Below, piece after piece: positions 1,866 to 64,000 of a stretch of DNA of 64,000 nt (position 1 is its first letter; every line of letters begins with the position of its first letter). Under the pieces are notes generated by a model. The model was not told the DNA's origin, ran no database searches, and worked only from the letters and a program-made list of their open reading frames with translations. Origin of the DNA: Prolixibacteraceae bacterium (GTDB lineage Bacteria > Bacteroidota > Bacteroidia > Bacteroidales > Prolixibacteraceae); NCBI GenBank assembly GCA_963668595.1, contig OY764876.1, positions 3,923,554 through 3,987,553 on the forward strand, written 5' to 3'. Made by a program: the position numbers and the translations under genes.

Positions 1866-3887
1866 TTACTTCCCGCCTTTTTCTTTCAGAATTTCCTGAA
1901 GTCGGAACATCTCGTCGCGAAGCTGTGCTGCGGCAATAAAATCGAGTTCTTTGGCCGCGGCCTGCATTTCTTTTTTCACTTTTTCGATGGCTTTTTCGAG
2001 TGCCGGAATACTCATGTACTGCACCACCGGATCGGCTGCCACATCGGGATGCGAAGCCCCGCCTGAATAGCTTTCCGTTTTGTCGCTGCGGAATTCGTAG
2101 CCAATAATTTCGCGGGTAGGTTTCACTATCGCTGTCGGCACGATATTGTTTTCCTCGTTGTATTTTAACTGCCTTTCGCGCCGGTAATTGGTCGAATCAA
2201 TGGTCTTTTGCATCGAGTCGGTGATTTTGTCGGCGTACATAATTACGCGGCCATTCAGATTTCGGGCAGCGCGCCCTGCTGTCTGCGTGAGCGAACGTTC
2301 CGAGCGCAGGAAACCTTCTTTGTCGGCATCCAGAATAGCCACCAGCGACACTTCAGGTAAGTCGAGCCCCTCGCGAAGCAGGTTGATTCCTACCAGCACA
2401 TCGAAGATGCCTTTACGCAGGTCTTCCATAATTTGTACGCGTTCCAGCGTGTCCACATCCGAATGGATATAGCGGGTTTTTACTCCGAAATTCAGAAAAT
2501 ATTTGGTGAGTTCTTCGGCCATGCGTTTGGTGAGCGTGGTCACCAGCACCCGCTCGTTTTTTTCGGTTCGCAGCGAAATCTCGTGCATCAGGTCATCAAT
2601 CTGGTTCTCGCTGGGGCGCACGTCGATAATCGGGTCGAGCAAGCCTGTTGGGCGGATGATTTGTTCCACCACCACACCTTCCGATTTTTCCAATTCGTAA
2701 TCGGCCGGCGTGGCACTTACAAAAACCGTTTGCCCTGCCAGCGATTCAAATTCTTCGAAACGCAGCGGACGGTTATCGATGGCTGCCGGAAGCCGGAACG
2801 CATATTCAACCAGATTAATTTTGCGCGAATGGTCGCCGCCGTACATGGCCCGAATTTGAGGAATAGTAACATGACTTTCGTCGATGATGGTCAGAAAATC
2901 TTTTGGGAAATAGTCGAGCAAACAGAAAGGGCGAGTGCCTGCGTCGCGTCCGTCGAAATAGCGCGAGTAGTTTTCAATACCCGGGCAATAGCCCAGCTCG
3001 CGCATCATTTCCATATCGTATTCCACCCGTTCCTGAATTCGTTTGGCCTCCTGAAATTTGCCTGCCGAGCGGAAAAACTCAATCTGTTTTACCAAATCGT
3101 CCTGAATTTGCCGAATGGCTTGTTGCATACGTTCCTTGGTGGTCACAAAAATATTGGCCGGATAAATTACCACATGTTCATGTTCTTCAATTACTGCGCC
3201 ACTGGCCGGATCGAATGAGTGAATTTCCTCAATTTCGTCGCCCCAGAAAATGATTTTGTAGGCAATGTCGGCATAAGCCGGAAACACATCAACCGTGTCG
3301 CCTTTTACCCTGAAATTGCCTCGCTGAAACTCAATCTCGCTGCGCGAATAAAGTGCATCAACCAGCTTGCGCAGAAACACATTGCGGCTAACGGTTTCGC
3401 CTTTCAGTACTTTGGTCACGTTGGCATGAAAATCTTCCGGATTGCCAATTCCATACAGGCAGGATACCGATGAAACCACAATCACATCGCGTCGTCCCGA
3501 CAAGAGGGCAGAGGTGGTGCTGAGTCGCAGTTTTTCAATATCCTGATTGATCGATAAATCTTTCTCTATATAGGTGTCCGAAGACGGAATATACGCTTCG
3601 GGCTGATAATAATCGTAATACGAAACGAAATATTCTACTGCATTGTTGGGGAAGAATTGTTTCATTTCGCTGTAAAGCTGGGCGGCCAGTGTTTTATTGT
3701 GACTCAGAATCAGCGCTGGACGTTGTGTCGTTTCGATTACATTGGCCATGGTAAATGTTTTCCCTGAACCAGTTACACCAAGTAGCGTTTGGAACGGCAC
3801 ATCCTGATAAATGCCTTCCGACAGTTGCCGAATGGCTTCAGGTTGATCGCCGGTGGGCTTGTAATTCGAAACAATTTTAAAATCCAT
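1866..3887 (-). CDS. uvrB: excinuclease ABC subunit B
   Basis: 673 aa. Walker A GVTGSGKTFT, a DESH box, helicase C motifs, and a C-terminal UVR domain (AAQLRDEMFRLQE). Confidence 0.97.
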   Translation of the reverse strand: MDFKIVSNYKPTGDQPEAIRQLSEGIYQDVPFQTLLGVTGSGKTFTMANVIETTQRPALILSHNKTLAAQLYSEMKQFFPNNAVEYFVSYYDYYQPEAYIPSSDTYIEKDLSINQDIEKLRLSTTSALLSGRRDVIVVSSVSCLYGIGNPEDFHANVTKVLKGETVSRNVFLRKLVDALYSRSEIEFQRGNFRVKGDTVDVFPAYADIAYKIIFWGDEIEEIHSFDPASGAVIEEHEHVVIYPANIFVTTKERMQQAIRQIQDDLVKQIEFFRSAGKFQEAKRIQERVEYDMEMMRELGYCPGIENYSRYFDGRDAGTRPFCLLDYFPKDFLTIIDESHVTIPQIRAMYGGDHSRKINLVEYAFRLPAAIDNRPLRFEEFESLAGQTVFVSATPADYELEKSEGVVVEQIIRPTGLLDPIIDVRPSENQIDDLMHEISLRTEKNERVLVTTLTKRMAEELTKYFLNFGVKTRYIHSDVDTLERVQIMEDLRKGIFDVLVGINLLREGLDLPEVSLVAILDADKEGFLRSERSLTQTAGRAARNLNGRVIMYADKITDSMQKTIDSTNYRRERQLKYNEENNIVPTAIVKPTREIIGYEFRSDKTESYSGGASHPDVAADPVVQYMSIPALEKAIEKVKKEMQAAAKELDFIAAAQLRDEMFRLQEILKEKGGK

Positions 3888-3911
3888 GGTTATCTGTTTT
3901 CCGCCTTGTTG

Positions 3912-4916
3912 CTATCGTGTTTTTAAAACAAAATATACCGGAAAATGATCACTCACTCCGCCGTAATAATTGGAGCCTCCGTATGTTCTGTTTGGCGAAG
4001 TTTCTCCTTTTTTGCTGGTGAACTCCATCCATTTTTTTCTGAAGATATAACCGCGTGCTCCGTCCACTTCGCAGCCTTTGCCGTTAATGAGTGAGCGCGA
4101 AACCACTAAATTATCGAGCATGTTCCAGTTTCCCCGATAAAAATAAGTGCCTAGATTTTGCTCGTCGAGCGGAAGCATCAGGTTTACCAGTGGAGCATTG
4201 CTGCCCGGAGCTTTGGCTCCCAGTGTTTCAATCAAACTTTTATTCAGCGGTTCGTCATTCATGTCGCCCATGATGACAATATTGGCTTTGGGATTTTGGG
4301 CAAGCACTTCGTCAACTTTGCTTTTCAGAATCGAGGCAACCTGCATGCGCTTGGCTTCTGTTTCCTCTTCGCCGCCAATGCGCGAAGGCCAGTGATTCAC
4401 AAAAACATGAAAAGTTTCTTTGCCAATTTTTCCTGAAACATGTAAAATATCGCGGGTTTTCCATTTGGGTTCGTCGGCAAAACCAACCGGAATGGCTTCC
4501 GAACTGCTGATTTTGAAAACTGACGGACGGTACAGCAACGCCACATCAATGCCGCGTGGATCGGGGCTTTCGAACTGGGTAATGGCGTATTTCCCTGCCT
4601 GCAAATATTTGTTTGCAACCAGATCGTTGAGAACCTGACGATTTTCAATTTCGCACAATCCGATTAATGCGGGGAGCGCAACAGTATCGATTTCGGATAA
4701 CACCCGGGCAAGATCAGATTGTTTTTTCTGATAACGGGCAAGGTCCCATTTTTTTTCGCTGTCGGGCAAAAACTCGTTGTCGTTGATGTGCGGATCATCC
4801 TGGGTGTCGAACAGATTTTCCGTGTTATAAAATGCTACAGTCAGCGATTGCTGGCTCTTTGTACAGGCACCAAGTGATGCCAGTACGATTACTGCTATCC
4901 AGAAAAAATGCTTCAT
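3912..4916 (-). CDS. endonuclease/exonuclease/phosphatase (EEP) family lipoprotein
   Basis: Signal peptide plus Cys (LASLGACT). N-terminal FYNTENLFD and C-terminal SDHFPV are typical EEP motifs. Confidence 0.8.
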   Translation of the reverse strand: MKHFFWIAVIVLASLGACTKSQQSLTVAFYNTENLFDTQDDPHINDNEFLPDSEKKWDLARYQKKQSDLARVLSEIDTVALPALIGLCEIENRQVLNDLVANKYLQAGKYAITQFESPDPRGIDVALLYRPSVFKISSSEAIPVGFADEPKWKTRDILHVSGKIGKETFHVFVNHWPSRIGGEEETEAKRMQVASILKSKVDEVLAQNPKANIVIMGDMNDEPLNKSLIETLGAKAPGSNAPLVNLMLPLDEQNLGTYFYRGNWNMLDNLVVSRSLINGKGCEVDGARGYIFRKKWMEFTSKKGETSPNRTYGGSNYYGGVSDHFPVYFVLKTR

Positions 4917-4928
4917 TTTATTTTCAGA

Positions 4929-5543
4929 TTAAAATAGTTGTTTCCCGATACTAACTTCATAATAATCGCGTACATCGGTAATCATCATGCCAACCGATTG
5001 TGCTGCCTGAATACCCAAAATACCATCTTCGAAAACCTCGCAGAATTCGGGTGCAACCTGCATCTGTTCGGCGCATTTCAAAAAGGTCTCGGGATGAGGT
5101 TTGAAATTAGTGACATCTTCGGAACAAACCAAAATCTGGAAATAATCTTTTAGTCCGATAATCTCAAGTGTTTTCAGCGCCAGGCGGCGGGCACTTCCGG
5201 TTCCGATTGACATGGGGAGCTTCCCGTGATATTTTTTTACCAGATTTACAACTGGTTCAATTGGTTGGGTCAGGTGCATATTGGCCTCGAATTCGGTTTC
5301 TTTTGCATCGCCCATTTCTTTTGGGTCGATATTTTTGTTGAACATCTCGTTCAGTTTCTCTACTGTTGGGTAAAGCGGAATACCTGCCAGTTGCGCAAAT
5401 AATTCAACGGTAAAGTCAATGTCGTAGCGGGCCGCCGCATTGCGCCATGCAATAAAATGGATGGGCATGGTATCAGCCAGTGTTCCGTCGAGATCAAAAA
5501 TGAGTGCTTTTGCCTGAGATTGAATATCTAATTCGTTCATCAT
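4929..5543 (-). CDS. HAD-superfamily hydrolase, beta-phosphoglucomutase-like subfamily
   Basis: Motif I is DLDGTLADT. A later GTGS and an ED.ILGIQAA-type motif follow. Length 204 aa. Confidence 0.85.
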   Translation of the reverse strand: MMNELDIQSQAKALIFDLDGTLADTMPIHFIAWRNAAARYDIDFTVELFAQLAGIPLYPTVEKLNEMFNKNIDPKEMGDAKETEFEANMHLTQPIEPVVNLVKKYHGKLPMSIGTGSARRLALKTLEIIGLKDYFQILVCSEDVTNFKPHPETFLKCAEQMQVAPEFCEVFEDGILGIQAAQSVGMMITDVRDYYEVSIGKQLF

Positions 5544-5662
5544 TTTTACATTGCAATTTTAATGAACGACAAAAGTAACCATGTAAATGGGAGTACCAAT
5601 AAAAGCACTTTTTTCTTTAAGGAAAAATTAACACTTTTGCTGTTCATTTTTTATGAAGTATC

Positions 5663-6046
5663 ATGAGCCAAAACCTTTTAGTTACGTTTACCAGTTCGGC
5701 CCAATTTGGGATATTCGGTGCGATTGTGCTGATCATTTTTGGCTGGGTGGATAAGAAAGACCGCTTTACCGACATTGGCCGGTTTTTGTTTATGGCACTG
5801 GGCATTTATGCATTGTGGGTCATTTTGACGGGACAAATTCATGTGCCCGAAGTTGCGGTTGGTGAAATCTCAAAAGAAATGCGGATTATTTCCTTTTTCA
5901 AAGGCTTGGTGCTGTGCGGCGGAATTTCTTTGCTCTCGTACGTGCTGAAATTAATGCATGTGCGTTATTACCGGCTGGTTACAATTTTGTGTATGGCTCT
6001 GGCTTTGTTCCTGTTTTTTACGGTGAATAATATTCAGCAAGCCTGA
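5663..6046 (+). CDS. hypothetical integral membrane protein
   Basis: 127 aa with four hydrophobic segments. Confidence 0.5.
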   Translation: MSQNLLVTFTSSAQFGIFGAIVLIIFGWVDKKDRFTDIGRFLFMALGIYALWVILTGQIHVPEVAVGEISKEMRIISFFKGLVLCGGISLLSYVLKLMHVRYYRLVTILCMALALFLFFTVNNIQQA

Positions 6047-6703: not shown

Positions 6704-7768
6704 ATGACCGAATCAAAAATACATGCAAATATTGTCTTTTCACAACAATCGGTAAAAGAACTGGCATTGTTGGTTGAAAAGTATCCCGAAGGAAAGGTTT
6801 TTTTACTGACCGAAACACAGGCGGCTGGCTTTTGCCTGCCAGCAGTGGCTGAATTGCTCGAACAGAAAAACATCCGCAAGATGGAAATTGAACCGGGGGA
6901 AGAAAATAAATCGATTCGCTCGGTCGAAAAAGTATGGCAGTTTTTGTCTGAAAATGGTGCCGACCGAAAATCGTTGCTCATCAATTTAGGAGGCGGAATG
7001 CTTACCGATTTGGGCGGTTTCGCTGCATCGACATTCAAACGGGGTCTCGATTTTGTGAATATTCCCACTACTTTGTTGGCGCAGGTGGATGCTTCGTTGG
7101 GCGGCAAAACAGGTTTCAATTTCAATGGTTTGAAAAATGAGATTGGCGTGTTTCAGGAACCCGTAGCAGTGCTGATTGATACAACATTTCTGAAAACCAT
7201 TGACCGGAGCAATTTTTTGTCGGGTTACGCCGAGATGATCAAACACGGCCTGATAAAAAGCCGCGAACATTGGGACGAGTTGCAGCACTTCGATTTTGAA
7301 TCGGTTAATTATGCAGCACTTCAGCAAATGATTGCCCACTCGGTAGCCGTAAAAGAGTGGTTTGTGATGAACGATCCGACGGAGAAAAATATTCGCAAAG
7401 CGCTTAATCTGGGACACACTGCCGGACACGCCTTCGAAAGTTATGCCATGAAAACGGGTCGCCCGATGTTGCACGGCTATGCGGTGGTGTATGGAATCAT
7501 CGTCGAATTATTTCTTTCAGTGAATAAATGTGGGTTCGACGCGGCTTTGTTACAGCAGATAAGCCGATGGCTCATTGATTTATACGGCAAATTTGACATT
7601 GCGGAAAGCGATTTTGATGCTTTGTTCGAACTAATGACTCATGATAAGAAAAATGAGGCTGGACGTATTAATTTTACACTGATTCCCGAAATTGGTCAGT
7701 TTGCAATTGACCAGCATTGCAACAAGGATGAAGTTTTTGAGGCACTGAATTTCTATCGCAATTTGTGA
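6704..7768 (+). CDS. aroB: 3-dehydroquinate synthase
   Basis: 354 aa. Glycine-rich NAD site LGGGMLTDLGGFAASTFKRG, metal-binding His region (LNLGHTAGHAFE), and adjacency to aroA. Confidence 0.9.
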   Translation: MTESKIHANIVFSQQSVKELALLVEKYPEGKVFLLTETQAAGFCLPAVAELLEQKNIRKMEIEPGEENKSIRSVEKVWQFLSENGADRKSLLINLGGGMLTDLGGFAASTFKRGLDFVNIPTTLLAQVDASLGGKTGFNFNGLKNEIGVFQEPVAVLIDTTFLKTIDRSNFLSGYAEMIKHGLIKSREHWDELQHFDFESVNYAALQQMIAHSVAVKEWFVMNDPTEKNIRKALNLGHTAGHAFESYAMKTGRPMLHGYAVVYGIIVELFLSVNKCGFDAALLQQISRWLIDLYGKFDIAESDFDALFELMTHDKKNEAGRINFTLIPEIGQFAIDQHCNKDEVFEALNFYRNL

Positions 7769-7826: not shown

Positions 7827-9056
7827 ATGAAGTATATTGTTTCGAAACCTGAAACTTCGCTAAAAGGAAGCATCAAACTTCCGGCATCGAAAAGTGTTGC
7901 CAACCGGGCACTGATTATTCATGCTCTGAGTTACAGCCCGTATCCGCTTGACAACATTTCCGACAGCGACGACACCCGCGTGATGCAACAGGTATTCAAC
8001 TCGAATACCAATGTTTTCGATATTGGTCACGCAGGAACCGCGATGCGTTTTCTTACTGCATTTTTGGCGAAAATTGTGGGCGAATGGACGCTTACCGGAT
8101 CGGAACGCATGAAACAACGACCCATCGGTATTTTGGTGGATGCGCTGGTGCAACTTGGTGCCCGCATCGAGTACCTCGAAAACGAAGGTTTTCCTCCTTT
8201 GAAAATATTTGGTTCGCACCTTAAAGGCGGTATTATCGAACTCGATGGAAGTGTGTCGAGCCAGTATATTTCGGCTTTGCTGATGATTGCCCCTGCGGTG
8301 GAAGGTGGATTGACGCTTCGTTTGAAAAACAAAATTATGTCGCGCTCTTACATCGAGCTAACTTTAAAGTTGATGGAACAATTTGGGGTGAATCATGTCT
8401 GGAAAGGCAACGAAATTCGCATTGCCGAGCAAGCTTATCGTCCGATTGCTTACACGGTGGAAGCCGACTGGTCGGGTGCTTCGTATTGGTACCAAATGGC
8501 CGCTCTGGCTGATGAGGTGGATGTATTGCTCGAAGATTTGAAACTGGACAGCCTGCAGGGCGATTGCGCCATTGCCAAATGGTTCGAAGCCTTTGGCGTG
8601 CTTTCCGAAGAAACTGAAAAAGGAGTTCGCCTGAGTAAAACAGAAAGTCGTTTACCTTCGGTGCTGCAACTCAATTTTATTGAAAACCCCGATGTAGCGC
8701 AGTCTTTTGCCGTATTGTGTGTGAAGAAAAATATTCCTTTCCATTTCACCGGACTTGAAACCCTGAAAATAAAAGAAACCAACCGCATTGAAGCTTTGCA
8801 GATTGAGCTGGCAAAGTTTGGCGCAACACTTACCGAACCCACGCATGGCGAGCTAAAATGGGATGGCAAACTTGTCGAGGTGACTGAAATTCCTTCGGTA
8901 GCAACTTACAAAGATCATCGCATGGCCTTGGCATTTGCCCCAGCCTGCCTGGGCAGTACGTCCGTTGCCATTGAAGAGCCGATGGTGGTCACCAAATCGT
9001 ACCCTGCCTATTGGGAAGATTTGAAAAAAGTGGGCTTCTCGGTGGAGGAATTGTAA
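7827..9056 (+). CDS. aroA: 3-phosphoshikimate 1-carboxyvinyltransferase (EPSP synthase)
   Basis: LPASKSVANRALI and GHAGTAMRFL motifs. ATG at 7827 is preferred over the TTG at 7815 given in the ORF track. Confidence 0.93.
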   Translation: MKYIVSKPETSLKGSIKLPASKSVANRALIIHALSYSPYPLDNISDSDDTRVMQQVFNSNTNVFDIGHAGTAMRFLTAFLAKIVGEWTLTGSERMKQRPIGILVDALVQLGARIEYLENEGFPPLKIFGSHLKGGIIELDGSVSSQYISALLMIAPAVEGGLTLRLKNKIMSRSYIELTLKLMEQFGVNHVWKGNEIRIAEQAYRPIAYTVEADWSGASYWYQMAALADEVDVLLEDLKLDSLQGDCAIAKWFEAFGVLSEETEKGVRLSKTESRLPSVLQLNFIENPDVAQSFAVLCVKKNIPFHFTGLETLKIKETNRIEALQIELAKFGATLTEPTHGELKWDGKLVEVTEIPSVATYKDHRMALAFAPACLGSTSVAIEEPMVVTKSYPAYWEDLKKVGFSVEEL

Positions 9057-11015: not shown

Positions 11016-12701
11016 TTAGTTCAAAGATTTTATGTTTATTGTTTCATAAAACCAGAATCTCTTCTCATTATACTGTGCAAGTTTTATTAAATGTAGAATT
11101 TCCCCTGATTTGTCGATAAACATATAAACAACGTTTATAGAGGCAACTTTAAATTGCCCTTTGTCTTGAAAAACATAGTCATCTATAGTATATGTATTTT
11201 TTGTATCATATCCCACTTCATCTATTCTTGTTAGTATTGTATTTCTTGTAGAATAGTCTTCTTTTATATATGTTGCAAATATCTCTTTGGTGGCACTACT
11301 TTGATCCAGTGTTAAAATATCTTTATTCAAAAGAGGTAATTCTCCCGAAAACTCAGGCTTGAATGAATAATAATTGAGGGAGGAAGAATAATTGAAGACT
11401 TTATATATTTTCCCATTGGAACAAAATATTCGGGTAAAATCATCGGCAATCCAGAATCTTCTCGATCCCAGATTTACTTCCTTTATTTCATTATTAATTG
11501 GACCTTCAGATATGTTGAAAACAGAGAGATAAGATGAATATTCCCTACTACCATATAGGACACCTTTGTTGGGAACTTTCTTTAAAAGATAATTGCCATT
11601 ATATATTTCGCCAGTAGTAACTATCTCTCCTGTAGTCAAGTTAACACTTTTGAATTTACGAGAGGAATCAGCTGATCGGGGAGATAAATAGACCCATTCA
11701 TTATTTCCCCAATTCACATCAGATGCAATCATTCCGGATTGATAGTTTTTTAAAATAGTCTTCTGTTCCACATCGATAAGTGAAACATCTGTATTTGTAA
11801 AATTAGCAACCAATGCATCTCCGTTTTCATTAAGACAAATACAAACGGGAACTTTTTTGGGTTCCATAACAGACACTGGTTCCCCTGGTCTGTAAAAATA
11901 AATCTGATCTGGTTGTTTTGTAGCTATTACCAGTAAACCGTTCTTTTTACAAAAATCTGCATCAACAACATCTCCTTCAATCTGGATATTACTTCCGGAA
12001 ATGGAGGGGTATTCGATTTTCATTGAAACTTTTATCATTTTGATTTCTTCAACCATATTTGTTGACACAACGATTCGTCCAGTGTAGTCGCCTTTATCTA
12101 GATTATCCCTTATTACAGAAATGCCAATATCTTCGGATTCACTTGGATATAAAGCACCTTTTTTCTTTGACGCTTTTATCCAGGATGGCAATTCTATTAA
12201 TTCCCAGGTCAAGATGCCTGGTCTATCCGTATTCTCTATGGTAATAGTTGAAAAATATTGATTGTCCAATACTAACTTATTTGGTAGAATAGATCCGACC
12301 GGAGTGCCATACTCAAAATAGCTTAAAGGATAAATTATCAATCCGATGCCTTCAACATCAAATGTCACAGATCTGTTCTGAATTCCAACGATAGAAACGC
12401 CATAGGGTGATTGTATTTTTTTTAATTTAATAACCGATTTTCCATCGATAAATTCACCTTTTTTAGGTTCAATATCTATTAATCCTGGAGATTGAAACAA
12501 TGACCATTTCGCGTTTTTTGCAGAAGATAATCGAAGTTCGTATTCAATTTCAGGATCAATGCTAGATAGTTTTATGGTATCCTCTGATCCTTCAACTAAA
12601 TAATACTCTTTATTCAGAAAATCATTATTACAACCAAACAGAAATGCTATAAGGATAAGAAGCAAATGAAAGTTTGCTATTTTGGAAATATTTTTTTTCA
12701 T
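11016..12701 (-). CDS. hypothetical surface lipoprotein (Ig/BACON-like N-terminal repeats and a possible beta-propeller C-terminus)
   Basis: Lipobox FLFGC-NN. 561 aa. It starts 1 nt after the upstream barrel gene ends. Confidence 0.55.
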   Translation of the reverse strand: MKKNISKIANFHLLLILIAFLFGCNNDFLNKEYYLVEGSEDTIKLSSIDPEIEYELRLSSAKNAKWSLFQSPGLIDIEPKKGEFIDGKSVIKLKKIQSPYGVSIVGIQNRSVTFDVEGIGLIIYPLSYFEYGTPVGSILPNKLVLDNQYFSTITIENTDRPGILTWELIELPSWIKASKKKGALYPSESEDIGISVIRDNLDKGDYTGRIVVSTNMVEEIKMIKVSMKIEYPSISGSNIQIEGDVVDADFCKKNGLLVIATKQPDQIYFYRPGEPVSVMEPKKVPVCICLNENGDALVANFTNTDVSLIDVEQKTILKNYQSGMIASDVNWGNNEWVYLSPRSADSSRKFKSVNLTTGEIVTTGEIYNGNYLLKKVPNKGVLYGSREYSSYLSVFNISEGPINNEIKEVNLGSRRFWIADDFTRIFCSNGKIYKVFNYSSSLNYYSFKPEFSGELPLLNKDILTLDQSSATKEIFATYIKEDYSTRNTILTRIDEVGYDTKNTYTIDDYVFQDKGQFKVASINVVYMFIDKSGEILHLIKLAQYNEKRFWFYETINIKSLN

Positions 12702-13841: not shown

Positions 13842-14933
13842 CTATAACTTGATAAAAATCTTTTTCCGATAGAGGATCAGCGCAGGGATAAACAGAATGC
13901 CAATATAAAACAAAGCATAGCCAAGGCTGGCTAATTTGGGGCCGCAACCAATTGCTGCAAACAGATCGAGCATGTGTTTGTTAATTGATCCGCCAAAGAA
14001 TTCGACGCGGCGGAAGAAATGCCCCAGTAATCCGGCAAGTACATACACCGCAATGGCATTGGCTCCGAAAATAGTTCCGAGCTTGGTAAAACGGGTCCGT
14101 CCCAGCATATCTACCACGTAAATACTTGCAGCCAGCGTCATCGATGCAAAACCGGCAGTAACCATTACAAACGAACTGCTCCACAGGCTTTTGTTTACAG
14201 GGAAATTCAGGTTCCAGATATATCCGAGGATGCTGGCAGCGAAGCCGGCCAAAAATAACCAGATCACTTTTTTCTGGTCTTCATTTTTGCTTACAATAAT
14301 GTGGCCGACCAACATACCGGCAATTCCACTGGCAATAGCAGGCAGTGTACTCAGCAGACCTTCCGGATCCCAGGTTCCTTGCCACATGCGGCCCGGCAAT
14401 AAAATGCTGTCGATCCATGCAGCGAAATTTTCACCCGGTTCAAGCGAAACCACACCAAAACCCGGAGTTGGAATCAGCACCATGGCCAGCCAGTAGCCAA
14501 TCAGCAACACAGCTCCGATAATTGCTTGCGTTTTCCATTTGGTGGTCAGATACAGAATGGCACACACCAGGAATACAATGGCAATGCGCTGGAGCACTCC
14601 GGCAATGCGTAATTCAGCAAAATTGAATTTTGGAAACAGAGCCAGGAAAATTCCCACCGCAAAAATTTTGATCGACCGGGTGATGATTTTCTTGTACATA
14701 TCTCCTTTGGGAGCCCCGGCATTCAATCGTTTCGAATAAGCCAGCACAATGGAAACTCCCACAATGAAAATGAAGAAAGGAAAAATCAAATCGGTAGGTG
14801 TGAGGCCGTGCCATTTGGCGTGCAACAGCGGCGCATACACGTTCGACCACGAACCCGGATTATTCACCATAATCATTGCTGCAATGGTAAATCCCCGGAA
14901 AGCATCCAAAGAAATGAGTCGTTTCGTTTCCAT
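13842..14933 (-). CDS. membrane acyltransferase, heparan-alpha-glucosaminide N-acetyltransferase-like (DUF1624/DUF5009 type)
   Basis: 363 aa with multiple TM segments. The N-terminal LISLDAFRGFTIAAMIMVNNPGSW is characteristic of this family. Confidence 0.75.
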   Translation of the reverse strand: METKRLISLDAFRGFTIAAMIMVNNPGSWSNVYAPLLHAKWHGLTPTDLIFPFFIFIVGVSIVLAYSKRLNAGAPKGDMYKKIITRSIKIFAVGIFLALFPKFNFAELRIAGVLQRIAIVFLVCAILYLTTKWKTQAIIGAVLLIGYWLAMVLIPTPGFGVVSLEPGENFAAWIDSILLPGRMWQGTWDPEGLLSTLPAIASGIAGMLVGHIIVSKNEDQKKVIWLFLAGFAASILGYIWNLNFPVNKSLWSSSFVMVTAGFASMTLAASIYVVDMLGRTRFTKLGTIFGANAIAVYVLAGLLGHFFRRVEFFGGSINKHMLDLFAAIGCGPKLASLGYALFYIGILFIPALILYRKKIFIKL

Positions 14934-15055: not shown

Positions 15056-16234
15056 TTATTCCTGATACAGTTTTATCACCGGCTGATCCGCTGCAATTTT
15101 TACCGATTCTTCTTTCATGTTTCCAGCCGCATCGGCAAAACGGAATACATACGGGGTGTTAATTTTTAGCTTGAATTTCAGAAATTTATTGAGATCGTCG
15201 GTTGTTGCAGGCGAATAACCAAAGTCGGCTACCTCGCAATTATTCAGTACCTCAATTTTTTCTGAAATACGCTGGTCGCCTTCCGTTGAATTGCTTTTGT
15301 AGAGTACCACATCCACAATCACTTCACCTTCTTTTAGTTCACCTCCGGTCAATTGCTGTTGATACAGATTGATGTAGCGATCGGTCACATTTTCAGCCGG
15401 AACATATTTAATGCTTTCATCCCATACGCAAGGAAAACTCAGCCCTGTTGGTTTAAATGAAGTTGCATAAATCCAGTGAATTGGCTTTGACGGATCGGCC
15501 TTGCCTGCATCGGCGAGGAACCAGCTTTTGTTCAACTGGTCAGGATAGTATTCGGTGAAGTACCATTGGCCCTCCATCCACACTTCGCACCAGTTGTGAT
15601 TGCCACGCATGTTGGTCCATAGTGGTGTGCCTGCAATGCGCGACGGAATACCTACCGAACGGAATGCATCGGTGAGTAATACCGACAAGCCGGTGCAGCT
15701 GGCCATGTTTTGTTCCATCGACTCGTACGGACTTTGATCGGCTTTGCGGCGTTTGGTATTGTATTCTACTTTTACAATTTCAAGAATATTTTGATTCACC
15801 TTATAAATCGCTTCTTCCATGCTTTTGCAGCTATCTACCAGCGATGCAAATTTATCGAAGAAGTCTTTGCGCCAGTTGTCGCGGCGTTCGTTCAACGATG
15901 CGTAGGGCAAAACATCATTATAGAAGATTGAATCGGGCAGGTTTTTGCACCAGGCAAATCGTTCGCGTGCGTCAAAAGCAACCTGAGTATTTTCGAGAAT
16001 GAAATCAGCACTCAGACTGGTTAAGTCGCGTTCAGGCATATAGCTAATCAGAAAAGCGACTGCTTCTCGTTGTTCTGCTGGTACTTTTTTCAGTGCACTT
16101 AATAGTTCTGTACGGTTGCTGTCGCTTTTTGCCAAAGCAGCTTCAACGCTTGCTTTGTAGCGCTCCGGAATAGCAGGGCTGCATGCGCTCAGTATCCAGG
16201 CGGCGAGTAAAACAAATACAATGATTCGGTTCAT
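15056..16234 (-). CDS. transglutaminase-like domain lipoprotein
   Basis: Lipobox ILSAC-SP. Cys-nucleophile context MASCTGLSVLLTDAFRSVGIPSR, followed by a downstream His/Asp region (NHNWCEVW). Confidence 0.75.
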   Translation of the reverse strand: MNRIIVFVLLAAWILSACSPAIPERYKASVEAALAKSDSNRTELLSALKKVPAEQREAVAFLISYMPERDLTSLSADFILENTQVAFDARERFAWCKNLPDSIFYNDVLPYASLNERRDNWRKDFFDKFASLVDSCKSMEEAIYKVNQNILEIVKVEYNTKRRKADQSPYESMEQNMASCTGLSVLLTDAFRSVGIPSRIAGTPLWTNMRGNHNWCEVWMEGQWYFTEYYPDQLNKSWFLADAGKADPSKPIHWIYATSFKPTGLSFPCVWDESIKYVPAENVTDRYINLYQQQLTGGELKEGEVIVDVVLYKSNSTEGDQRISEKIEVLNNCEVADFGYSPATTDDLNKFLKFKLKINTPYVFRFADAAGNMKEESVKIAADQPVIKLYQE

Positions 16235-16364
16235 GTGGTTATGATTAAATTTGTATGATGAGTTACAATTTTCAAAGATAAAAATATTTTATAATTGTCT
16301 GGTTGCATACCTACTGGCATTTGTTTCAGTCATTGATAGAGATTGATAGTTATTGGTGTTTGCT

Positions 16365-16494
16365 TTCGGACGGAACTATATACAGTTGGGGATTGCGGGT
16401 TGCTTTCCTGTCGAACCCCAATGCCATTGTTGCGGGATGCGGACTTTGTTGTCCTAACCGAAACCCCAATTGATATATAGTTTTTGTTAGCAAT
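16365..16494 (-). repeat. attC-like imperfect palindrome, element A
   Basis: Stem CTATAT/ATATAG + CA/TG + GTTGGGG/CCCCAAT (16376-16391 with 16464-16480). The core GTTGGGGATTGCGGGTTGCTTTCCTGTC matches element B at 26/28 nt. It ends in TGTTAGCAAT (16485-16494), directly after the stop of the ORF at 16497-17219. Confidence 0.6.
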
Positions 16495-16496
16495 AG

Positions 16497-17219
16497 TTAT
16501 TTGTCAATCAAGTCATTTAATTCATTTATAAATGCTTTCTTATAAGCAGAAAATTCACTGTCTGATTCTATATCCTTAATTCGAATCTTGTTTCTCTCGA
16601 ATAATTTCATGCATAAAAACTGTATTTGTTTATTGTCACTACTGTCAAAACCACAAATAGTTAGTAACGATGTCGGATTTTTAAGTTTTACAAAAAGACT
16701 TTTTTTAATCGAAATCCTATCACTGTATCTTTTCGTTAAAACTAATTGCTCCAGAATATTATTAGCCATTATTACTGTCTGTTTGCTTCGTTTTATTAGG
16801 TTTGTAGCTATTGATTTTATAATATAATAGTCAGTATAGTAGTAGTTTACTTGATAATTATCATCGTCCTTTAATGATGAATTTATATCCATTAAAATCA
16901 CACCACAATCAAAGTATCTACAGAGTCCATTGTCAAACCTCATTAATTCAGCATTTCTGTTATTCGGCAATAAGATTCCTTTATGAATTTCCCATGATTT
17001 AGTTGATGAGTCCAGTCTCGTTTTTATTTGATAGCGACCAATTTTGTCATCGTCGTCAATGACAATATCAAATCCTTCAAAGTCCACATTTGCACTAAAT
17101 ATCTTTAAATGATATTCGCGCTTTGCCGCGGCAATTTTTAAGTCATAGAATAACTTATGATTAAATAATTCTTCTCGAACCAATGTTGCCGAAGCATCTT
17201 TCAAATATTTACTACTCAT
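16497..17219 (-). CDS. hypothetical protein, possible PD-(D/E)xK-fold nuclease
   Basis: 240 aa in an AT-rich stretch. Candidate motif is E16/E17 ... GFD51IVI ... Q64-I-K66. The ORF is flanked by the 10-bp inverted repeat TGTTAGCAAT / ATTGCTAACA. Confidence 0.55.
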   Translation of the reverse strand: MSSKYLKDASATLVREELFNHKLFYDLKIAAAKREYHLKIFSANVDFEGFDIVIDDDDKIGRYQIKTRLDSSTKSWEIHKGILLPNNRNAELMRFDNGLCRYFDCGVILMDINSSLKDDDNYQVNYYYTDYYIIKSIATNLIKRSKQTVIMANNILEQLVLTKRYSDRISIKKSLFVKLKNPTSLLTICGFDSSDNKQIQFLCMKLFERNKIRIKDIESDSEFSAYKKAFINELNDLIDK

Positions 17220-17302
17220 CGAACAAGGCGTTTATAATTATTGCTAACAGATATTTAAATGACAACTGAATGACCATTAATGACCCGTGACTGATTTTTC
17301 TT

Positions 17303-17770
17303 TCATCGTTTCCTTTTAAAGAAGTCAGTCATTAAATCGGCACAGTCGTCAGCCATAATGCCCGAAACAACTTCAGTTTTTGGGTGCAATGCCTGTGGTG
17401 CGAAGCGCGAAAAACCGCGTTTGGGATCAGAAGCTCCGTAAACAAGTCGTCCTAATTGAGCCCAGCCTAGTGCCCCGGCGCACATTACGCAGGGTTCGAG
17501 CGTAACATAGAGCGTGCATTCATTCAGATACTTGGCTCCGAGCAGGTTGGCGGCGGCAGTAATTGCCTGCATCTCGGCGTGAGCCGTTACATCAGTAAGT
17601 GTTTCGGTCAGGTTGTGGGCGCGGGCAATAATACGGTTTTGTGCCACAACTACTGCACCAACAGGTATTTCGTCTTTTTCGAATGCAGCAATAGCTTCAG
17701 CCAAAGCTCGTTTCATAAAGTATTCGTCCGAAAAGTCTTGCATGTTTTTCAATCTTCGATTTCCATACAA
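17303..17770 (-). CDS. tadA: tRNA-specific adenosine deaminase
   Basis: HAEMQAI and PCVMCAGAL zinc motifs. The true start may be the internal Met at 17743 (MQDFSDEYFMKRAL). Confidence 0.9.
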   Translation of the reverse strand: MYGNRRLKNMQDFSDEYFMKRALAEAIAAFEKDEIPVGAVVVAQNRIIARAHNLTETLTDVTAHAEMQAITAAANLLGAKYLNECTLYVTLEPCVMCAGALGWAQLGRLVYGASDPKRGFSRFAPQALHPKTEVVSGIMADDCADLMTDFFKRKR

Positions 17771-58220: not shown

Positions 58221-58350
58221 GCCGGATAGCTCTGTTTGCAATCGTCGAGTCTTTTTTGGTCTGTTCATCCCGGCTCCCATCGGTTCGGATACGTTCTGCC
58301 AATCGTGTCTATTATCGGGGTGATTTACTTGGTTGTGTGTAATTCATTTT

Positions 58351-58725
58351 TCAACTTAATACCCATCCTATAGCTGATTCAAGAGTGCTAAATGGCCTGG
58401 AAATATAGCCATCGTCGTCAATTTGAACTAATATTGGAATTACAATATCTTTGGGTTCCTCAGTAAGTACAGCAATTTTCAAGTTCCCGAATATGTCAAG
58501 ATGTTTCTTATAGAATTCCGATATTGCTCTATGTTCGTTAATTTTTATATTAAAATTTGAATTCCGATAATCTAGAATAAATCCTTTTGTTTCTTTCGGA
58601 ATTAAATTATTCGCAAACGCATATTCCCATGAAGACTTAATATCTTCTATATTAGTTGATTCATAGTAGTACTTAAACAAAATACCGATTGAACTATCAA
58701 ATTGATATTTAAATTTCTCTCCCAT
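58351..58725 (-). CDS. hypothetical protein
   Basis: AT-rich ORF. The ATG at 58725 is preferred over the TTG at 58734. No recognised motif. Confidence 0.45.
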   Translation of the reverse strand: MGEKFKYQFDSSIGILFKYYYESTNIEDIKSSWEYAFANNLIPKETKGFILDYRNSNFNIKINEHRAISEFYKKHLDIFGNLKIAVLTEEPKDIVIPILVQIDDDGYISRPFSTLESAIGWVLS

Positions 58726-58769
58726 TAAATTCAAATATAAATATTTTAATAGAAAATCAAGTTTTTTAC

Positions 58770-58830
58770 AAAAATGCTAATTGCAAATCAGCATTAGCCG
58801 CTGCGAGCGGGGATGTCTCAAGGAGCGGGA
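58770..58830 (-). repeat. ~62-nt repeat, inverted copy of 1194-1255
   Basis: Contains AATGCTAATT-gca-AATCAGCATT (58773-58795). On the minus strand it lies about 45 nt upstream of the ORF at 58351-58725, the same relative arrangement as copy 1 and the ORF at 1331. Confidence 0.8.
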
Positions 58831-58847
58831 TGAACGGATTCAAAAAC

Positions 58848-59096
58848 TCAAAGAACTTTCAACCGGGAGATTTCGTCTTTGCTTTCAACCATAATCCGAG
58901 TGTTCATTAAATCTTTACGGTCATATTTTTTTATCCATTCGTTGACCGTACTGCTTTGCAGCCCATAAATGCGGGATAACTCTCTTTTGGAGTATTTTCC
59001 AGTACTAAGTTCGGCTAAAATTTTGAGTTTGAAACTCTCGCTGTAACGTCGGGTTACTTGTTCATTTCTATCATTTAAAATCAATAATTTTTTCAA
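58848..59096 (-). pseudogene. IS3-family transposase OrfA (HTH) remnant
   Basis: RRYSESFKLKILAELSTGKYSKRELSRIYGLQSSTVNEWIKKY is an IS3/IS911 OrfA-type HTH. There is no ATG start and no OrfB, and it overlaps the neighbouring ORF. Confidence 0.6.
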
Positions 59097-59667
59097 TGTC
59101 GATGCTCATGCTGTCAAATGCGTCATTTATTGGTTTAGAAATAATTGCAGAGACAAAAAGTGAGAAAAAATAAATCAATATCATAAGAGTTAAGCCAAAA
59201 ATGATCCTAATAAAAGTATATTTAGCAATTTTAAAACCGGTAATCTTTTCTAACAAATTGAATCTGGTTATTAGAAAACTTATTAGAGTTACTGTTAAGA
59301 CCCAAATTGGAAATACCAATATAGCTCTCCAAATTTCTCTATATGCTAAAAGCCAGTATAGGATTATGCCCAAAACTGAAAAACTTAAAACATTCTCAAA
59401 TAGTATTAATCTCCAAGAAGATGGTTTTGGAGGAAATTTTGTCCATAATTCCAACCAGACTATAATTGTAATTGTCAGAAAGACAAACGACAAAATATTT
59501 CCAATTGGTTTAATTGTCAAGTTATAGGAAAAAACTGTCAGAGCAGTAAAAACTCCTAGTACAGATATGAGTTTACTATTATTCTCAATATAATCCGAAA
59601 GAGAATTTGGCTTTTTAATCTCAGAATCATTTGATTCTACTGAATTGTCGTTGTCTTTTTGTCTCAT
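59071..59667 (-). CDS. hypothetical polytopic membrane protein
   Basis: 198 aa with about five TM segments. AT-rich. Confidence 0.5.
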   Translation of the reverse strand: MRQKDNDNSVESNDSEIKKPNSLSDYIENNSKLISVLGVFTALTVFSYNLTIKPIGNILSFVFLTITIIVWLELWTKFPPKPSSWRLILFENVLSFSVLGIILYWLLAYREIWRAILVFPIWVLTVTLISFLITRFNLLEKITGFKIAKYTFIRIIFGLTLMILIYFFSLFVSAIISKPINDAFDSMSIDIEKIIDFK

Positions 59668-59719: not shown

Positions 59720-61404
59720 CAGTCTGTCTAAAAACCTCCAAATTCAATGCTATTCAATTTGATATTGGGGCTATAAAGCAGCGATTTGAAAGTAGTGATA
59801 AATTTTTATTTTCAGAATAAAAATGCTTGTTGATTTTTGAAATGGTTCAATAAAGCGGTTTTTGAGCCTCAAAAACGATGATAAAACAGATTTGTATGCT
59901 CCAAATACTTTTGTCCCCAGCAAATTGATAATCCGTCGGAGATTGCATGCAGTGAGAACCAGACCGCAATCGGCTTCCGCTCGTTGTTTGTACCTTTTTG
60001 TTATGATATAATTGAATCCCCACTGTCGTTTTATTGTCCCGAAAGGATGTTCAACAATGGCCTGCCTGCGTTTGTATAATTTTTCGCTGTTCTGAACTCT
60101 CTTTTTGTTGTTCTCAATGCTTCCGGCAAACTCGCTACGCCTGACCTGCTTGCCATTGACGGCCGACTTGGTACAACGGGGACGAACCGGACATGTTTTG
60201 CAAAGAGGAGTTGTATAGTTTCTGAATCGGTACGACACCTCTCCTGCGTCGTTTTTTGCCTGGTGCCAGTACCCGGTAGTGGTCAGTGTATGGCCTTGCA
60301 AACAGGTGTAAGTATCTGCTTGGGGATTATAGTGAAAATGCTCTACGTCGTAGTCCGGATCGGGTGCATGTGAGGCTCCTGAGAATGGAGGAATGGCCAC
60401 GATTGCCTGAATGCCCAGAGTATCAGCAATCGCCAGTTCGCTACCGGTATGATAGCCTTTGTCGTAGAGTGCAGTAAACTGATTGTTTCTTAAAATGGTT
60501 TTTGCCCTTCGGAGCATCGGCCCCATGGCCTTTTTATCATTGTTGTTGGTTACCCGATAGTCAATAGGAATATTGTTTTGTGCATCCACCGTGGTTTGAA
60601 GACTGTAAGCTACTTCAGTAATATTGTTGCGGGTAATCATGTGGCGGCTGTCGGGATCAGAGGTAGAGATTTGTGCCTGCCCGGATTGCTTTAACTGCTG
60701 CTCTATTTGCTGATAACCCACCCTTCGTTGCTCGTGTTTGAATATCTCTTTTTTGATCTCTTCCGCGTCTTTGTCGTTTTCGGCTAATGCTTTCTGATAC
60801 TCGGTAAGTTTGTTTTCAATGTATTCCAGATGACGGTCAATCTTCTTCTGGTTGTAATTATTTTTCTTACTGTTTTGTGCTCTGAGTTTAGTACTGTCAC
60901 CGGCCAGTAATTTTCCGCCAATCAGGTTAAAATACTGAGCGATTCTGACCGTTTCGCGGAATACTTTCTTTATTGCCTGCGGATTATCTCTTCGGAAATT
61001 GGAAATCGTATTGTGATCGGGGGTCAAGTTCTTCAAAAGCCATATCACTTCAATATTACGACGGCATTCTTTCTCTAGCTGTCTTGACGAGCGGATACGG
61101 TTCATATACCCGTAAATGAAAAGTTTCAGCAGGTCTCCCGGATGATAAGCAGGTCTGCCGTTCTCGCTGAAATCAATTCGGAATCCCATTTCTGAAAGAT
61201 TTAATTTCTCAACAAACACATCAATCAGGCGAACCTCGTTGTCTTTATCGATTGCCAGATCCAGTGAAATGGGAAATAAATGGGTTTGATTGCGATCTTG
61301 TCCTTGAATATATTTCATGTTTCAAGATAACAATCCCTTCTCGTATTATACTTGCTTTCCCTGATTTGTTTTCAACAATCGAATGTGGGTTTTTAGACAG
61401 TCTG
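59720..61404 (-). mobile_element. IS1182-family insertion sequence, complete copy (1685 bp)
   Basis: Terminal inverted repeats are CAGTCTGTCTAAAAACC (59720-36) and GGTTTTTAGACAGTCTG (61388-404), matching 16/17. A 4-bp direct repeat ACGG flanks it at 59716-19 and 61405-08. Confidence 0.85.
59771..61318 (-). CDS. IS1182-family DDE transposase
   Basis: 515 aa. N-terminal DUF772-type block RPAYHPGDLLKLFIYGYMNRIRSSRQLE. C-terminal IVEHPFGTIKRQWGF. Confidence 0.88.
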   Translation of the reverse strand: MKYIQGQDRNQTHLFPISLDLAIDKDNEVRLIDVFVEKLNLSEMGFRIDFSENGRPAYHPGDLLKLFIYGYMNRIRSSRQLEKECRRNIEVIWLLKNLTPDHNTISNFRRDNPQAIKKVFRETVRIAQYFNLIGGKLLAGDSTKLRAQNSKKNNYNQKKIDRHLEYIENKLTEYQKALAENDKDAEEIKKEIFKHEQRRVGYQQIEQQLKQSGQAQISTSDPDSRHMITRNNITEVAYSLQTTVDAQNNIPIDYRVTNNNDKKAMGPMLRRAKTILRNNQFTALYDKGYHTGSELAIADTLGIQAIVAIPPFSGASHAPDPDYDVEHFHYNPQADTYTCLQGHTLTTTGYWHQAKNDAGEVSYRFRNYTTPLCKTCPVRPRCTKSAVNGKQVRRSEFAGSIENNKKRVQNSEKLYKRRQAIVEHPFGTIKRQWGFNYIITKRYKQRAEADCGLVLTACNLRRIINLLGTKVFGAYKSVLSSFLRLKNRFIEPFQKSTSIFILKIKIYHYFQIAAL

Positions 61405-61531
61405 ACGGTGGCGGTATGAAATCGTTGGGGATTGCGGGCTACTTTCCTGTCAAGTTACACCGAACTTAATGCGTGGTATAACTCTTGGATAACCACCTAA
61501 ACCCCAATGTTTTATACCGCGTGTTATGCGG
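61405..61531 (-). repeat. attC-like imperfect palindrome, element B (main part)
   Basis: Stem GCGGTAT/ATACCGC, AAA/TTT, GTTGGGG/CCCCAAT (61411-61430 with 61502-61520). The core is conserved with element A. It ends in GTTATGCGG (61523-31). Confidence 0.6.
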
Positions 61532-61582
61532 TCGTAGTTTTATGATTTTACAGTCGTTATAGATTCGTCAGGTTTGATAAAT

Positions 61583-62536: not shown

Positions 62537-62627
62537 AATTGATTGATTTTAATTGATATTGTTGTATTTAAGTAATAATTCAATTTCAAACTTATTAGTA
62601 AATTTGTTTGACTGTCGTTTTTACTAT

Positions 62628-62765
62628 GCCGCATAACGGTCACTTGCAAGTTGTCGTTGCGGATTTCGAAGAGCGTCAGCGTCCGCAGGACGAAGACGGT
62701 CAAGAAAGGAGCAGAGACAACGCACACCACTGTACCCGCAATGCAATTTGCAATTTGTTATGGCC
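62628..62765 (-). repeat. attC-like imperfect palindrome, element C (intact)
   Basis: GCCGCATAACGG ... GTTATGGCC. Arms pair TTGCAA/TTGCAA, GTTG/CAAT and TTGCGG/CCGCAA with bulges. It is a GC-rich island in AT-rich surroundings. Confidence 0.6.
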
Positions 62766-62796
62766 TGGTTTTTATATTTTTCAATCATACATGTCA

Positions 62797-63341: not shown

Positions 63342-64000
63342 CAGTCTGTCTAAAAACCTCCAAATTCAATGCTATTCAATTTGATATTGGGGCTATAAAG
63401 CAGCGATTTGAAAGTAGTGATAAATTTTTATTTTCAGAATAAAAATGCTTGTTGATTTTTGAAATGGTTCAATAAAGCGGTTTTTGAGGCTCAAAAACGA
63501 CGAAAAAACAGATTTGTATGCTCCAAATACTTTTGTCCCCAGCAAATTGATAATCCGTCGGAGATTGTATGCAGTGAGAACCAGACCGCAATCGGCTTCC
63601 GCTCGTTGTTTGTACCTTTTTGTTATGATATAATTGAATCCCCACTGTCGTTTTATTGTCCCGAAAGGATGTTCAACAATGGCCTGCCTGCGTTTGTATA
63701 ATTTTTCGCTGTTCTGAACTCTCTTTTTGTTGTTCTCAATGCTTCCGGCAAACTCGCTACGCCTGACCTGCTTGCCATTGACGGCCGACTTGGTACAACG
63801 GGGACGAACCGGACATGTTTTGCACAGAGGAGTTGTATAGTTTCTGAATCGGTACGACACCTCTCCTGCGTCGTTTTTTGCCTGGTGCCAGTACCCGGTA
63901 GTGGTCAGTGTATGGCCTTGCAAACAGGTGTAAGTATCTGCTTGGGGATTATAGAGAAAATGCTCTACGTCGTAGTCCAGATCGGGTGCATGTGAGGCTC
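63342..64000 (-). mobile_element. IS1182-family insertion sequence, second copy (runs off the window)
   Basis: Same left end CAGTCTGTCTAAAAACC as copy 1 and near-identical sequence with a few substitutions. The transposase stop is at 63393, the same 51-nt offset as in copy 1. Confidence 0.85.
63393..64000 (-). CDS. IS1182-family transposase, C-terminal part (partial at window edge)
   Basis: Translation matches copy 1 except for a few substitutions (for example TACNL to TAYNL, FLRLK to FLSLK). The frame stays open to position 64000. Confidence 0.85.
   Translation of the reverse strand, partial: ASHAPDLDYDVEHFLYNPQADTYTCLQGHTLTTTGYWHQAKNDAGEVSYRFRNYTTPLCKTCPVRPRCTKSAVNGKQVRRSEFAGSIENNKKRVQNSEKLYKRRQAIVEHPFGTIKRQWGFNYIITKRYKQRAEADCGLVLTAYNLRRIINLLGTKVFGAYKSVFSSFLSLKNRFIEPFQKSTSIFILKIKIYHYFQIAAL

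Follow-up and report, generated by a model that had tools for sequence, protein, structure and literature searches.

The stretch of DNA analysed here (the window, 64,000 nucleotides (nt) from a Prolixibacteraceae genome) carries on its minus strand tadA (17770 to 17303) and a transglutaminase-like gene (16234 to 15056), the latter preceded by a promoter-proximal block. Between these two genes, and 41 kb away from the cassette array of the same genome, stands alone a module of 877 bp (16371 to 17247, minus strand) which we identify with high confidence as an integron gene cassette. Read on the minus strand, the module opens with CTG|TTAGCAAT (17250 to 17240), the bar marking the cassette boundary, and continues with a leader of 28 nt and an AT-rich open reading frame (ORF) of 240 codons (ORF240, 16497 to 17219), after which TAA-CT-ATTGCTAAC leads into a large palindrome that closes the unit with GTTCCG. 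At the 5' junction G17248 was assigned to the target and T17247 is the first base of the cassette; the stop codon of tadA lies 55 nt from the outer box (17240 to 17249). The cassette has the orientation of tadA, and its GC content is 0.32 (0.30 in ORF240) against 0.45-0.48 in the two neighbouring genes.

The palindrome is an attC site. The original prediction had described the region 16365 to 16494 (element A) as palindromic and attC-like, and this description holds, since it is a large imperfect palindrome sharing the exact 14-mer TTGGGGATTGCGGG, within a conserved core of ~30 nt, with element B, the reference attC of the array. Delimited as an attC, element A occupies 16371 to 16494 on the minus strand, a 124-nt imperfect palindrome ending in TATAGTTCCG in which R'', L'', a central region, L' and CCG can be recognised and the R' half-site is missing. 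Its R'' box ATTGCTAAC (16486 to 16494) starts 2 nt after the stop codon of ORF240. The suggested scoring with a covariance model was carried out with a model (R1) built from 12 attCs, 10 from L023, a metagenomic contig of 5.9 Mb, and 2 from the window; element A was left out, and element B entered the training after removal of an insertion sequence (IS) and of one copy of its target duplication. When the whole 64 kb was scanned with filters off, element A reached 42.6 bits on the minus strand (E about 1e-10, the E-values being rough) and 9.9 bits on the plus strand, the next-best background match in the window having 10.5 bits; the model aligns the box following the stop codon to R'' UAAC. On 395 kb of other loci R1 gave matches in the L023 array only, including three attCs outside the training set, and no match in ~380 kb of genomic loci other than L023, mostly from related Bacteroidota. 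The consensus fold of the 12 training attCs consists of R''/R' (TAAC/GTTA) and a bulged L''/L' stem, with compensatory changes in 14 of the 21 pairs. In a larger alignment 92% of the cells are paired, vs 30-40% with the partners slid, and the compensatory changes then amount to 15 of 21 pairs; this alignment was fitted to the model and therefore leans towards structure. A search of 16200-17400 against Rfam gave nothing even at E <= 1; element A corresponds to none of the RNA families described so far.

Element A scores below the other attCs of the window because its R' half-site is absent. Its alignment to R1 preserves the pairs of the L stem and shows those of R as broken, and its end reads CCG|TCCG (GTTCCG|TCCGAAAGC), where all 12 training attCs, element B with its IS removed included, have CCG|TTA; the far box had thus been rightly called degenerate. 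In the place of an intact R' core site G|TTRRRY able to pair with R'', element A has G|TCCGAAAG. On the recombining strand the hybrid R site has GAC where AAC is conserved, with 3 of 6 R''/R' pairs left, and judging from these bases the R box is no longer able to pair, so that excision of the cassette should be poor or even impossible; the earlier 'probably immobile' is a reasonable inference from them. Joining to a non-att site would leave a cassette with just such a broken R', which argues against current mobility, not against such an origin. Element A is, in sum, a true member of the attC family of the array, in cassette orientation and with one half-site replaced. On the tadA side of the cassette, along the 55 nt up to the stop codon, R1 detected no attC (filters off, E <= 10), in agreement with the palindrome-free upstream side noted before. 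Nor does the same filters-off scan find any further attC between 1 and 61 kb of the window, which leaves element A as a single attC.

By the textbook rule an integron cassette begins with bases that complement the box of the element it carries. The same relation is found here, the 5' end of the cassette TTAGCAAT (17247 to 17240) being exactly complementary to its own R'' box ATTGCTAA (16494 to 16487), and the outer box as a whole being the exact complement of R''. At this junction CTG precedes the outer box, in columns that are invariably CCG in the training attCs (12 of 12). The perfect 10-bp inverted repeat reported around the ORF was recovered with both arms exact (TGTTAGCAAT at 16485-16494 and ATTGCTAACA at 17240-17249); a repeat finder extends it to 16485-16500 and 17234-17249 with 15 of 16 positions complementary, one more than the 14 of 16 given previously. 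The 9-mer GTTAGCAAT is found only at these two places on both strands of the 64 kb, with 0.66 occurrences expected by chance; given the box of the palindrome, its complement would fall in the 60 nt preceding the ORF start with a probability of ~4e-4. Further inverted repeats of similar length are present in the AT-rich 1.2 kb around the ORF; therefore it is the position of the repeat and its match to the attC box that count, not its length.

These ends are corroborated by a homologous cassette in a genuine array. On L023 around 19 small co-oriented genes lie between elements of 130-145 nt with the form nnnnTAAC...CCG|TTAnnnn, and the first bases of its cassettes are complementary to the box of their own element. 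One of these genes, within an array with 13 attC matches, encodes P0003, a homologue of ORF240 with 67% identity. Its cassette (7980-8859) starts with CCG|TTAGCACCAATTAAAAAACCAATG (boundary CCG|TTAGCACC) and ends with TAACTGGTGCTAAC, after which come the attC and CCG|TTATAGCC. The boundaries G|TTAGCAcc ... TAACTnnTGCTAAC are common to both cassettes, the arrangement TAA-CT-nnTGCTAAC at the stop codon and R'' is identical, the leader and the spacing from the stop codon to R'' are equal, and the units measure 880 nt vs 877 nt. The boundaries 16371 and 17247 were thus placed by R-box logic together with this homologous cassette. The R1 scores bear out the proposal that the lone cassette belongs to the attC family of the array at 58-64 kb.

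That array occupies the right end of the window (58.3-64 kb), where small minus-strand ORFs alternate with palindromes, and it runs past position 64000. Element B (61395 to 61535, minus strand) scores 96.8 bits, is of the same subtype as element A and has the IS in its R' box; winC, the second intact attC (62626 to 62768, minus strand), scores 123 bits. Elements A and B and L023 attC no. 1 have in common the subtype core GACARGAAAGnARCCCGCAATCnnCCAnC. We observed that these three elements make up a second shared subtype, and that winC and L023 attC no. 2 (2097-2239), from different assemblies, differ at ~4 of 127 positions; attC subtypes are therefore common to different genomes.

The original prediction had also called for relatives in which the site is empty. 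Three of them (L037, L038 and L039) were found via protein search, scans of genomes and metagenome contigs having given identities of at most 63% only. The transglutaminase of L037 is 99% identical to that of the window, and the locus ~97% identical in nucleotides over 3.9 kb; the corresponding values are 89% and about 82% for L038, and 72% and about 75% for L039. All three have aspS/tadA, directly followed by the transglutaminase gene and then by an HGSNAT-like gene, with gaps between tadA and the transglutaminase gene of 80 nt in L037 (the shortest), 145 nt in L038 and 85 nt in L039, and neither ORF240 nor an attC is present in these spacers. The only distant genome that keeps the aspS-tadA...transglutaminase synteny is L001, and there tadA is separated from the transglutaminase gene by two genes (3381-5925), one resembling deoD (purine-nucleoside phosphorylase) and the other that of an M28 peptidase. 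The spacers of L037, L038, L039 and the window, too, differ completely from one another; this position is prone to rearrangement. The emptiness of three relatives and the low GC content of ORF240 compared to its neighbours support a recent gain of the cassette, after the split from the 97%-identical lineage.

The empty allele has been located in this way, with tadA directly before the transglutaminase gene, and yet its junction is not the one that had been foreseen: the sequence AAATATCTG|TCCGAAAGC is absent from all relatives. According to blastn, L037 aligns to the window at 18571-17297 and 16292-13697, and the segment 16293 to 17296 of the window (1004 nt) is replaced in L037 by 15 nt. These 1004 nt comprise the 877-nt cassette, 49 nt on the tadA side (17248 to 17296) and 78 nt on the transglutaminase side (16293 to 16370), both flanks being specific to the window. 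The 78-nt flank, TCCGAAAGC...GACAATT on the minus strand, begins with the remainder of the hybrid R' site. Its breakpoint at 16292/16293 is sharp, with 0 mismatches to L037 in the adjoining 90 nt; on the tadA side, where the breakpoint lies at 17297, 6 of the 22 tadA nt next to it differ. A putative hairpin over the stop codon of tadA may have its descending arm in the first part of the 49-nt flank. The conserved block on the transglutaminase side starts ~12 nt upstream of the motif TATCTTTG (16273-16280), which fits the Bacteroidota -7 promoter box but is not enriched in the window. The spacers of the three relatives could not be aligned with one another or with that of the window by MAFFT.

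With these elements we propose an origin for the lone cassette. A cassette would have been present as a free circle, and an integron integrase would have joined its folded attC to an ordinary site of double-stranded DNA in the spacer between tadA and the transglutaminase gene, in a reaction between attC and a secondary site ('attG'). The target would have read ATATCTG|TCCGAAAGC, with crossover at G|T between the cassette CCG|TTAGCAAT and the target CTG|TCCGAAAGC, so that the products would be a G of the target before the cassette (CTG|TTAGCAAT) and target DNA in the place of the R' half-site (CCG|TCCGAAAGC). Complementarity between the cassette's 5' end and its own R'' is what any cassette shows that was once a circle closed at G|TT, and in a family with CCG|TTA throughout, CTG|TTA at the 5' end and CCG|TCCG at the 3' end are as they should be with one G|T derived from a non-att target. 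A circle with one attC leaves this attC beside target DNA; for direct insertion the 78-nt flank must therefore have belonged to the target itself. Since the flanks adjoining the cassette are absent from all relatives, the spacer must on this reading have changed at least once more, before or after the integrase-mediated insertion. A lone cassette of this kind outside an array is a SALIN (single attC lacking integron integrase). Cassette insertion by IntI1-3 at many genomic attG sites with the consensus 5'-G|WT-3' has been described in E. coli, SALINs are common in genomes, and inserted cassettes can later excise, sometimes with deletion of neighbouring DNA (Loot et al., bioRxiv 10.1101/2022.09.11.507474). 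We consider direct integrase insertion at CTG|TCC plausible and the best reading of the locus, somewhat more probable than not, though unconfirmed.

Several observations weigh against it. The 49- and 78-nt flanks are missing from L037 together with the cassette, with 15 unrelated nt in their place, and in none of the three relatives does the empty allele equal the occupied allele minus exactly the cassette. Short-word BLAST searches with the flanks, each alone and rejoined, against the window and 41 loci gave chance matches only, and the rejoined flanks have no special structure, their folding (z = 0.35) being no better than that of shuffled sequences. The short motif TCGGGA(T)AG(G)AATA, common to L037 and L038 and absent from the window, hints that their short spacer is the older state. 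The inferred target triplet is G|TC, in which the G and the T at +1 agree with G|WT and the C at +2 does not; this consensus belongs to IntI1-3 in E. coli and may not be that of the host's integrase. No integron integrase was found in the 64-kb window, where selected ORFs only were scanned for domains. Finally, R1 is a self-built, family-specific model and not the generic attC model of IntegronFinder. The earlier proposal of integration at a secondary, non-attC site is sustained in part, by the replacement of the outer half-site by non-attC DNA and by the empty relatives; on the other side stand the missing junction and the partial fit of G|TC to G|WT.

The same 1004-nt difference invites another explanation, in which the cassette is real and a ~1-kb fragment (16293-17296) came in as a whole, in one step independent of the integrase, by illegitimate recombination or by import of a spacer allele after transformation. 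Such a fragment would contain a cassette trapped elsewhere at a secondary site, or one released by excision from an array with a mutated R', in addition to 28-49 nt and 78 nt of foreign DNA. A single event would then account for the complete difference from L037. In favour of this explanation are also the sharp breakpoint towards the transglutaminase gene, which lies 78 nt past the attC, and the absence from the window of the spacer motif of L037 and L038; the AGCAA found in the flank by the tandem TCCG TCCG, 5 nt out of register, could in that case be the damaged R' of a following cassette. However, no donor of the flanks was found in the window and 41 loci, the 5' flank is devoid of attC features and hence is not simply a piece of array, and neither target-site duplications nor terminal repeats are seen at 16293 and 17296. 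Moreover, a tract imported by homologous recombination should show raised divergence from L037, and no such rise is seen on the transglutaminase side. We regard this import, and equally the proposed content of the fragment, as possible but clearly less probable than direct insertion. As for the AGCAA itself, we observed at the 3' junction (16359-16377) GTTCCG|TCCGAAAGCAAAC with the tandem TCCG TCCG, and AGCAA is the complement of TTGCT in R'', 5 nt out of register, both pairing in the minimum-energy fold. Chance (roughly 1-2%) could have produced it; otherwise the integrase may prefer targets that resemble R', or the sequence may be what is left of a damaged R'.

It is improbable that the cassette is ancestral and was lost in the relatives, for instance through integrase excision using nearby genomic sites and deleting the flanks. 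Excision of genome-inserted cassettes at nearby sites with genomic deletion was indeed seen by Loot et al., and L037 has the shortest spacer (80 nt). Nevertheless three relatives at very different distances are empty and L001 has other genes, so that several independent losses would be needed, the 15 nt of L037 are not derivable from the window by deletion, and the base composition of ORF240 is foreign. The repeat of 16 nt at both ends of the ORF (15 of 16 complementary) could also be read as the two terminal repeats of a small transposable element (16485-17249) carrying ORF240, with element A as an unrelated neighbouring palindrome. This reading was rejected as highly improbable, because there is no target-site duplication (AGTTTT vs GATATT), no transposase family is matched by ORF240, and the R box suffices to explain the repeat, whose inner arm is the R'' box of a scored attC. 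The equivalent repeat of L023 is likewise explained by cassette structure within an array, and the homologues in L024-L026 and L041 are without such repeats. Direct insertion by the integrase, with a further change in the spacer, stays the reading that we prefer.

Regarding the cargo, the 240-residue product of ORF240 belongs to an uncharacterised family with a predicted nuclease-like fold. No family above threshold was obtained in Pfam, PADLOC, NCBIfam, PHROGs or the sequences of the PDB, and no relatives in plasmid and phage collections. A word-indexed search yielded 21 relatives, the best being P0001 with 85% identity, and a full profile search gave 407 clusters at 50% identity, nearly all of 230-280 residues. 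The AlphaFold2 model has a predicted local distance difference test (pLDDT) of 87 and a predicted template-modelling score (pTM) of 0.88; the best fold matches in the PDB by Foldseek are EcoRV, HincII, Hjc and DpnI, all of them weak (E about 1e-2, template-modelling (TM) score about 0.3), and PDDEXK_5 of Pfam matches residues 45-70 below threshold. Invariant in the family are E16, D46, D51, D55, D56, Q64 and K66, of which E16 is located on helix 1, D51 at the start of strand 2, and Q64-x-K66 on strand 3. ORF240 is thus predicted to be a protein of the PD-(D/E)xK nuclease fold; the structural model is confident, while the matches that point to this fold are weak evidence.

The search for ORF240 in other genomes, as suggested in the original prediction, had a mixed result: the homologue in L023 has the attC and the matching box, and the other five loci with homologues have no attC; nor is there an inverted repeat like that of the window around the homologues in L024-L026 and L041. 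The occurrence of homologues both in an array and at loci without attC indicates that the gene family moves as a cassette and otherwise. A cassette-type leader is kept in L040 (850-1620; acaTTAGTACCAATTATAAAATG) and L024 (6740-7500; aagTTGGCTTCAATTATAAGAGCATG), with no attC downstream, and these homologues may be former cassettes that lost their attC. In L026 (4912-12614) the homologue P0007 was observed within a tight co-directional cluster of unannotated genes, with two HamA-domain genes and a DEAD-box helicase, Hachiman-like in look, a few kb downstream; this neighbourhood looks like a defence-island context. The neighbours of the L023 homologue include AbiJ/Abi_C, Fic and DUF4145 cassettes. 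Taking the L023 and L026 neighbours together, ORF240 is possibly defence-related. We find it rather unlikely, though worth stating, that ORF240 founds an unrecognised stand-alone PD-(D/E)xK family, or that the extra 49 + 78 nt record a route, other than the simple reaction of attC with attG, by which cassettes move along with non-cassette DNA. If true, the ORF240 family (about 400 clusters at 50% identity) may serve in defence against phages or plasmids, travelling as an integron cassette and inside defence islands.

With respect to expression, no Bacteroidota-type -7 box TAnnTTTG is present upstream of ORF240, which from its upstream bases would seem to be promoterless; its expression, if any, would come by read-through from tadA. 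A sigma-70-like match TTGTCA-17-AATAAT (10 of 12) was noticed on the minus strand (17265 to 17237) across the 5' junction, its -35 falling within the flank and its -10 within the cassette leader. Promoters of Bacteroidota have a consensus that differs from that of sigma-70. The match is probably not meaningful, as such matches occur here at chance frequency and the sigma-70 consensus is not that of Bacteroidota.

The array itself has been visited by a mobile element. The IS in element B (1685 bp, 59720-61404) has a DUF772 + DDE_Tnp_1_6 transposase and the ends CAGTCTGTCTAAAAACC / GGTTTTTAGACAGTCTG, and was judged IS1182-like. Its insertion point coincides with the R' box (CCG|TTA), where 4 bp are duplicated (ACGG, or CCGT when read on the cassette strand). 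Another copy with 98.9% identity begins at 63342, and is covered up to 64000, at the equivalent position of a different attC. Three miniature inverted-repeat transposable elements (MITEs) of ~107 nt with the ends of this IS occupy the same position in three attCs of L023 (approx. 6861-6967, 12124-12230 and 13873-13979). From their ends and sites, the IS and the MITEs look like an attC-targeting family, and the transposase type of this IS differs from that of the IS1111-attC group. At the other end of the array (58221-59100), next to a GntP permease gene, there are ORF127 (58351-58734) and an 82-residue ORF with an HTH_Tnp_1 transposase fragment (58848-59096), and R1 detected no attC in 58221-59100. 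The array seems to be decayed or disrupted at this distal end.

Isolated cassettes are regarded as the trace that integron integrases leave on ordinary genomic DNA, an idea supported mostly by experiments in E. coli and by counts of single attCs. The present locus provides a natural case that can be dissected at base level, in which the ends are set by a homologue in an array, one half-site is visibly replaced and the empty allele exists in a 97%-identical relative, and it extends the phenomenon to a lineage of Bacteroidota (Marinilabiliales) with its own attC family. That the empty site is unlike the predicted junction is also a caution, since presence and absence alone are no proof of mechanism. 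The cargo is a candidate nuclease of an unannotated family.

Compared with known systems, ORF240 resembles the PD-(D/E)xK nucleases in its predicted alpha-beta-beta-beta core, with the invariant E16, D51 and Q64-x-K66 at the expected places, and all its leading fold matches fall within the superfamily; it differs in having Q for D/E in the motif and in lacking a partner methyltransferase, and the matches are weak. The module has in common with sedentary chromosomal integron arrays and attC clusters that have no integron integrase (CALINs), such as those of the window at 58.3-64 kb and of L023, the attC family, the R-box rule, the gene orientation and a homologous cassette, but it is one cassette, with no upstream attC or attI and with its R' half-site lost. 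A closer parallel is the aadB cassette at secondary sites in RSF1010 and pRAY, which, as far as its citation goes in Loot et al. (bioRxiv 10.1101/2022.09.11.507474), is also one complete cassette lying outside any integron, which became fixed at a non-att site where resident transcription runs upstream of it; within that same account aadB is a resistance gene on plasmids with a documented parent sequence, whereas here the cassette is chromosomal and no exact parent sequence is at hand. In relation to SALINs and attG insertions, the host here is of the Marinilabiliales (Prolixibacteraceae-like) with a lineage-specific attC family, the inferred target is G|TC and not G|WT, and the nearest empty allele is without the exact junction. 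The likeness is nonetheless extensive: one ORF with one attC, distant from other attCs and with no integrase gene among the ORFs scanned in the window, the junction pattern X-G|TT(cassette)...attC-G|T-Y, and a position in an intergenic spacer, with a resident gene of equal orientation upstream. The lone cassette is a natural example of the described phenomenon, the SALIN, and not a new kind of element.

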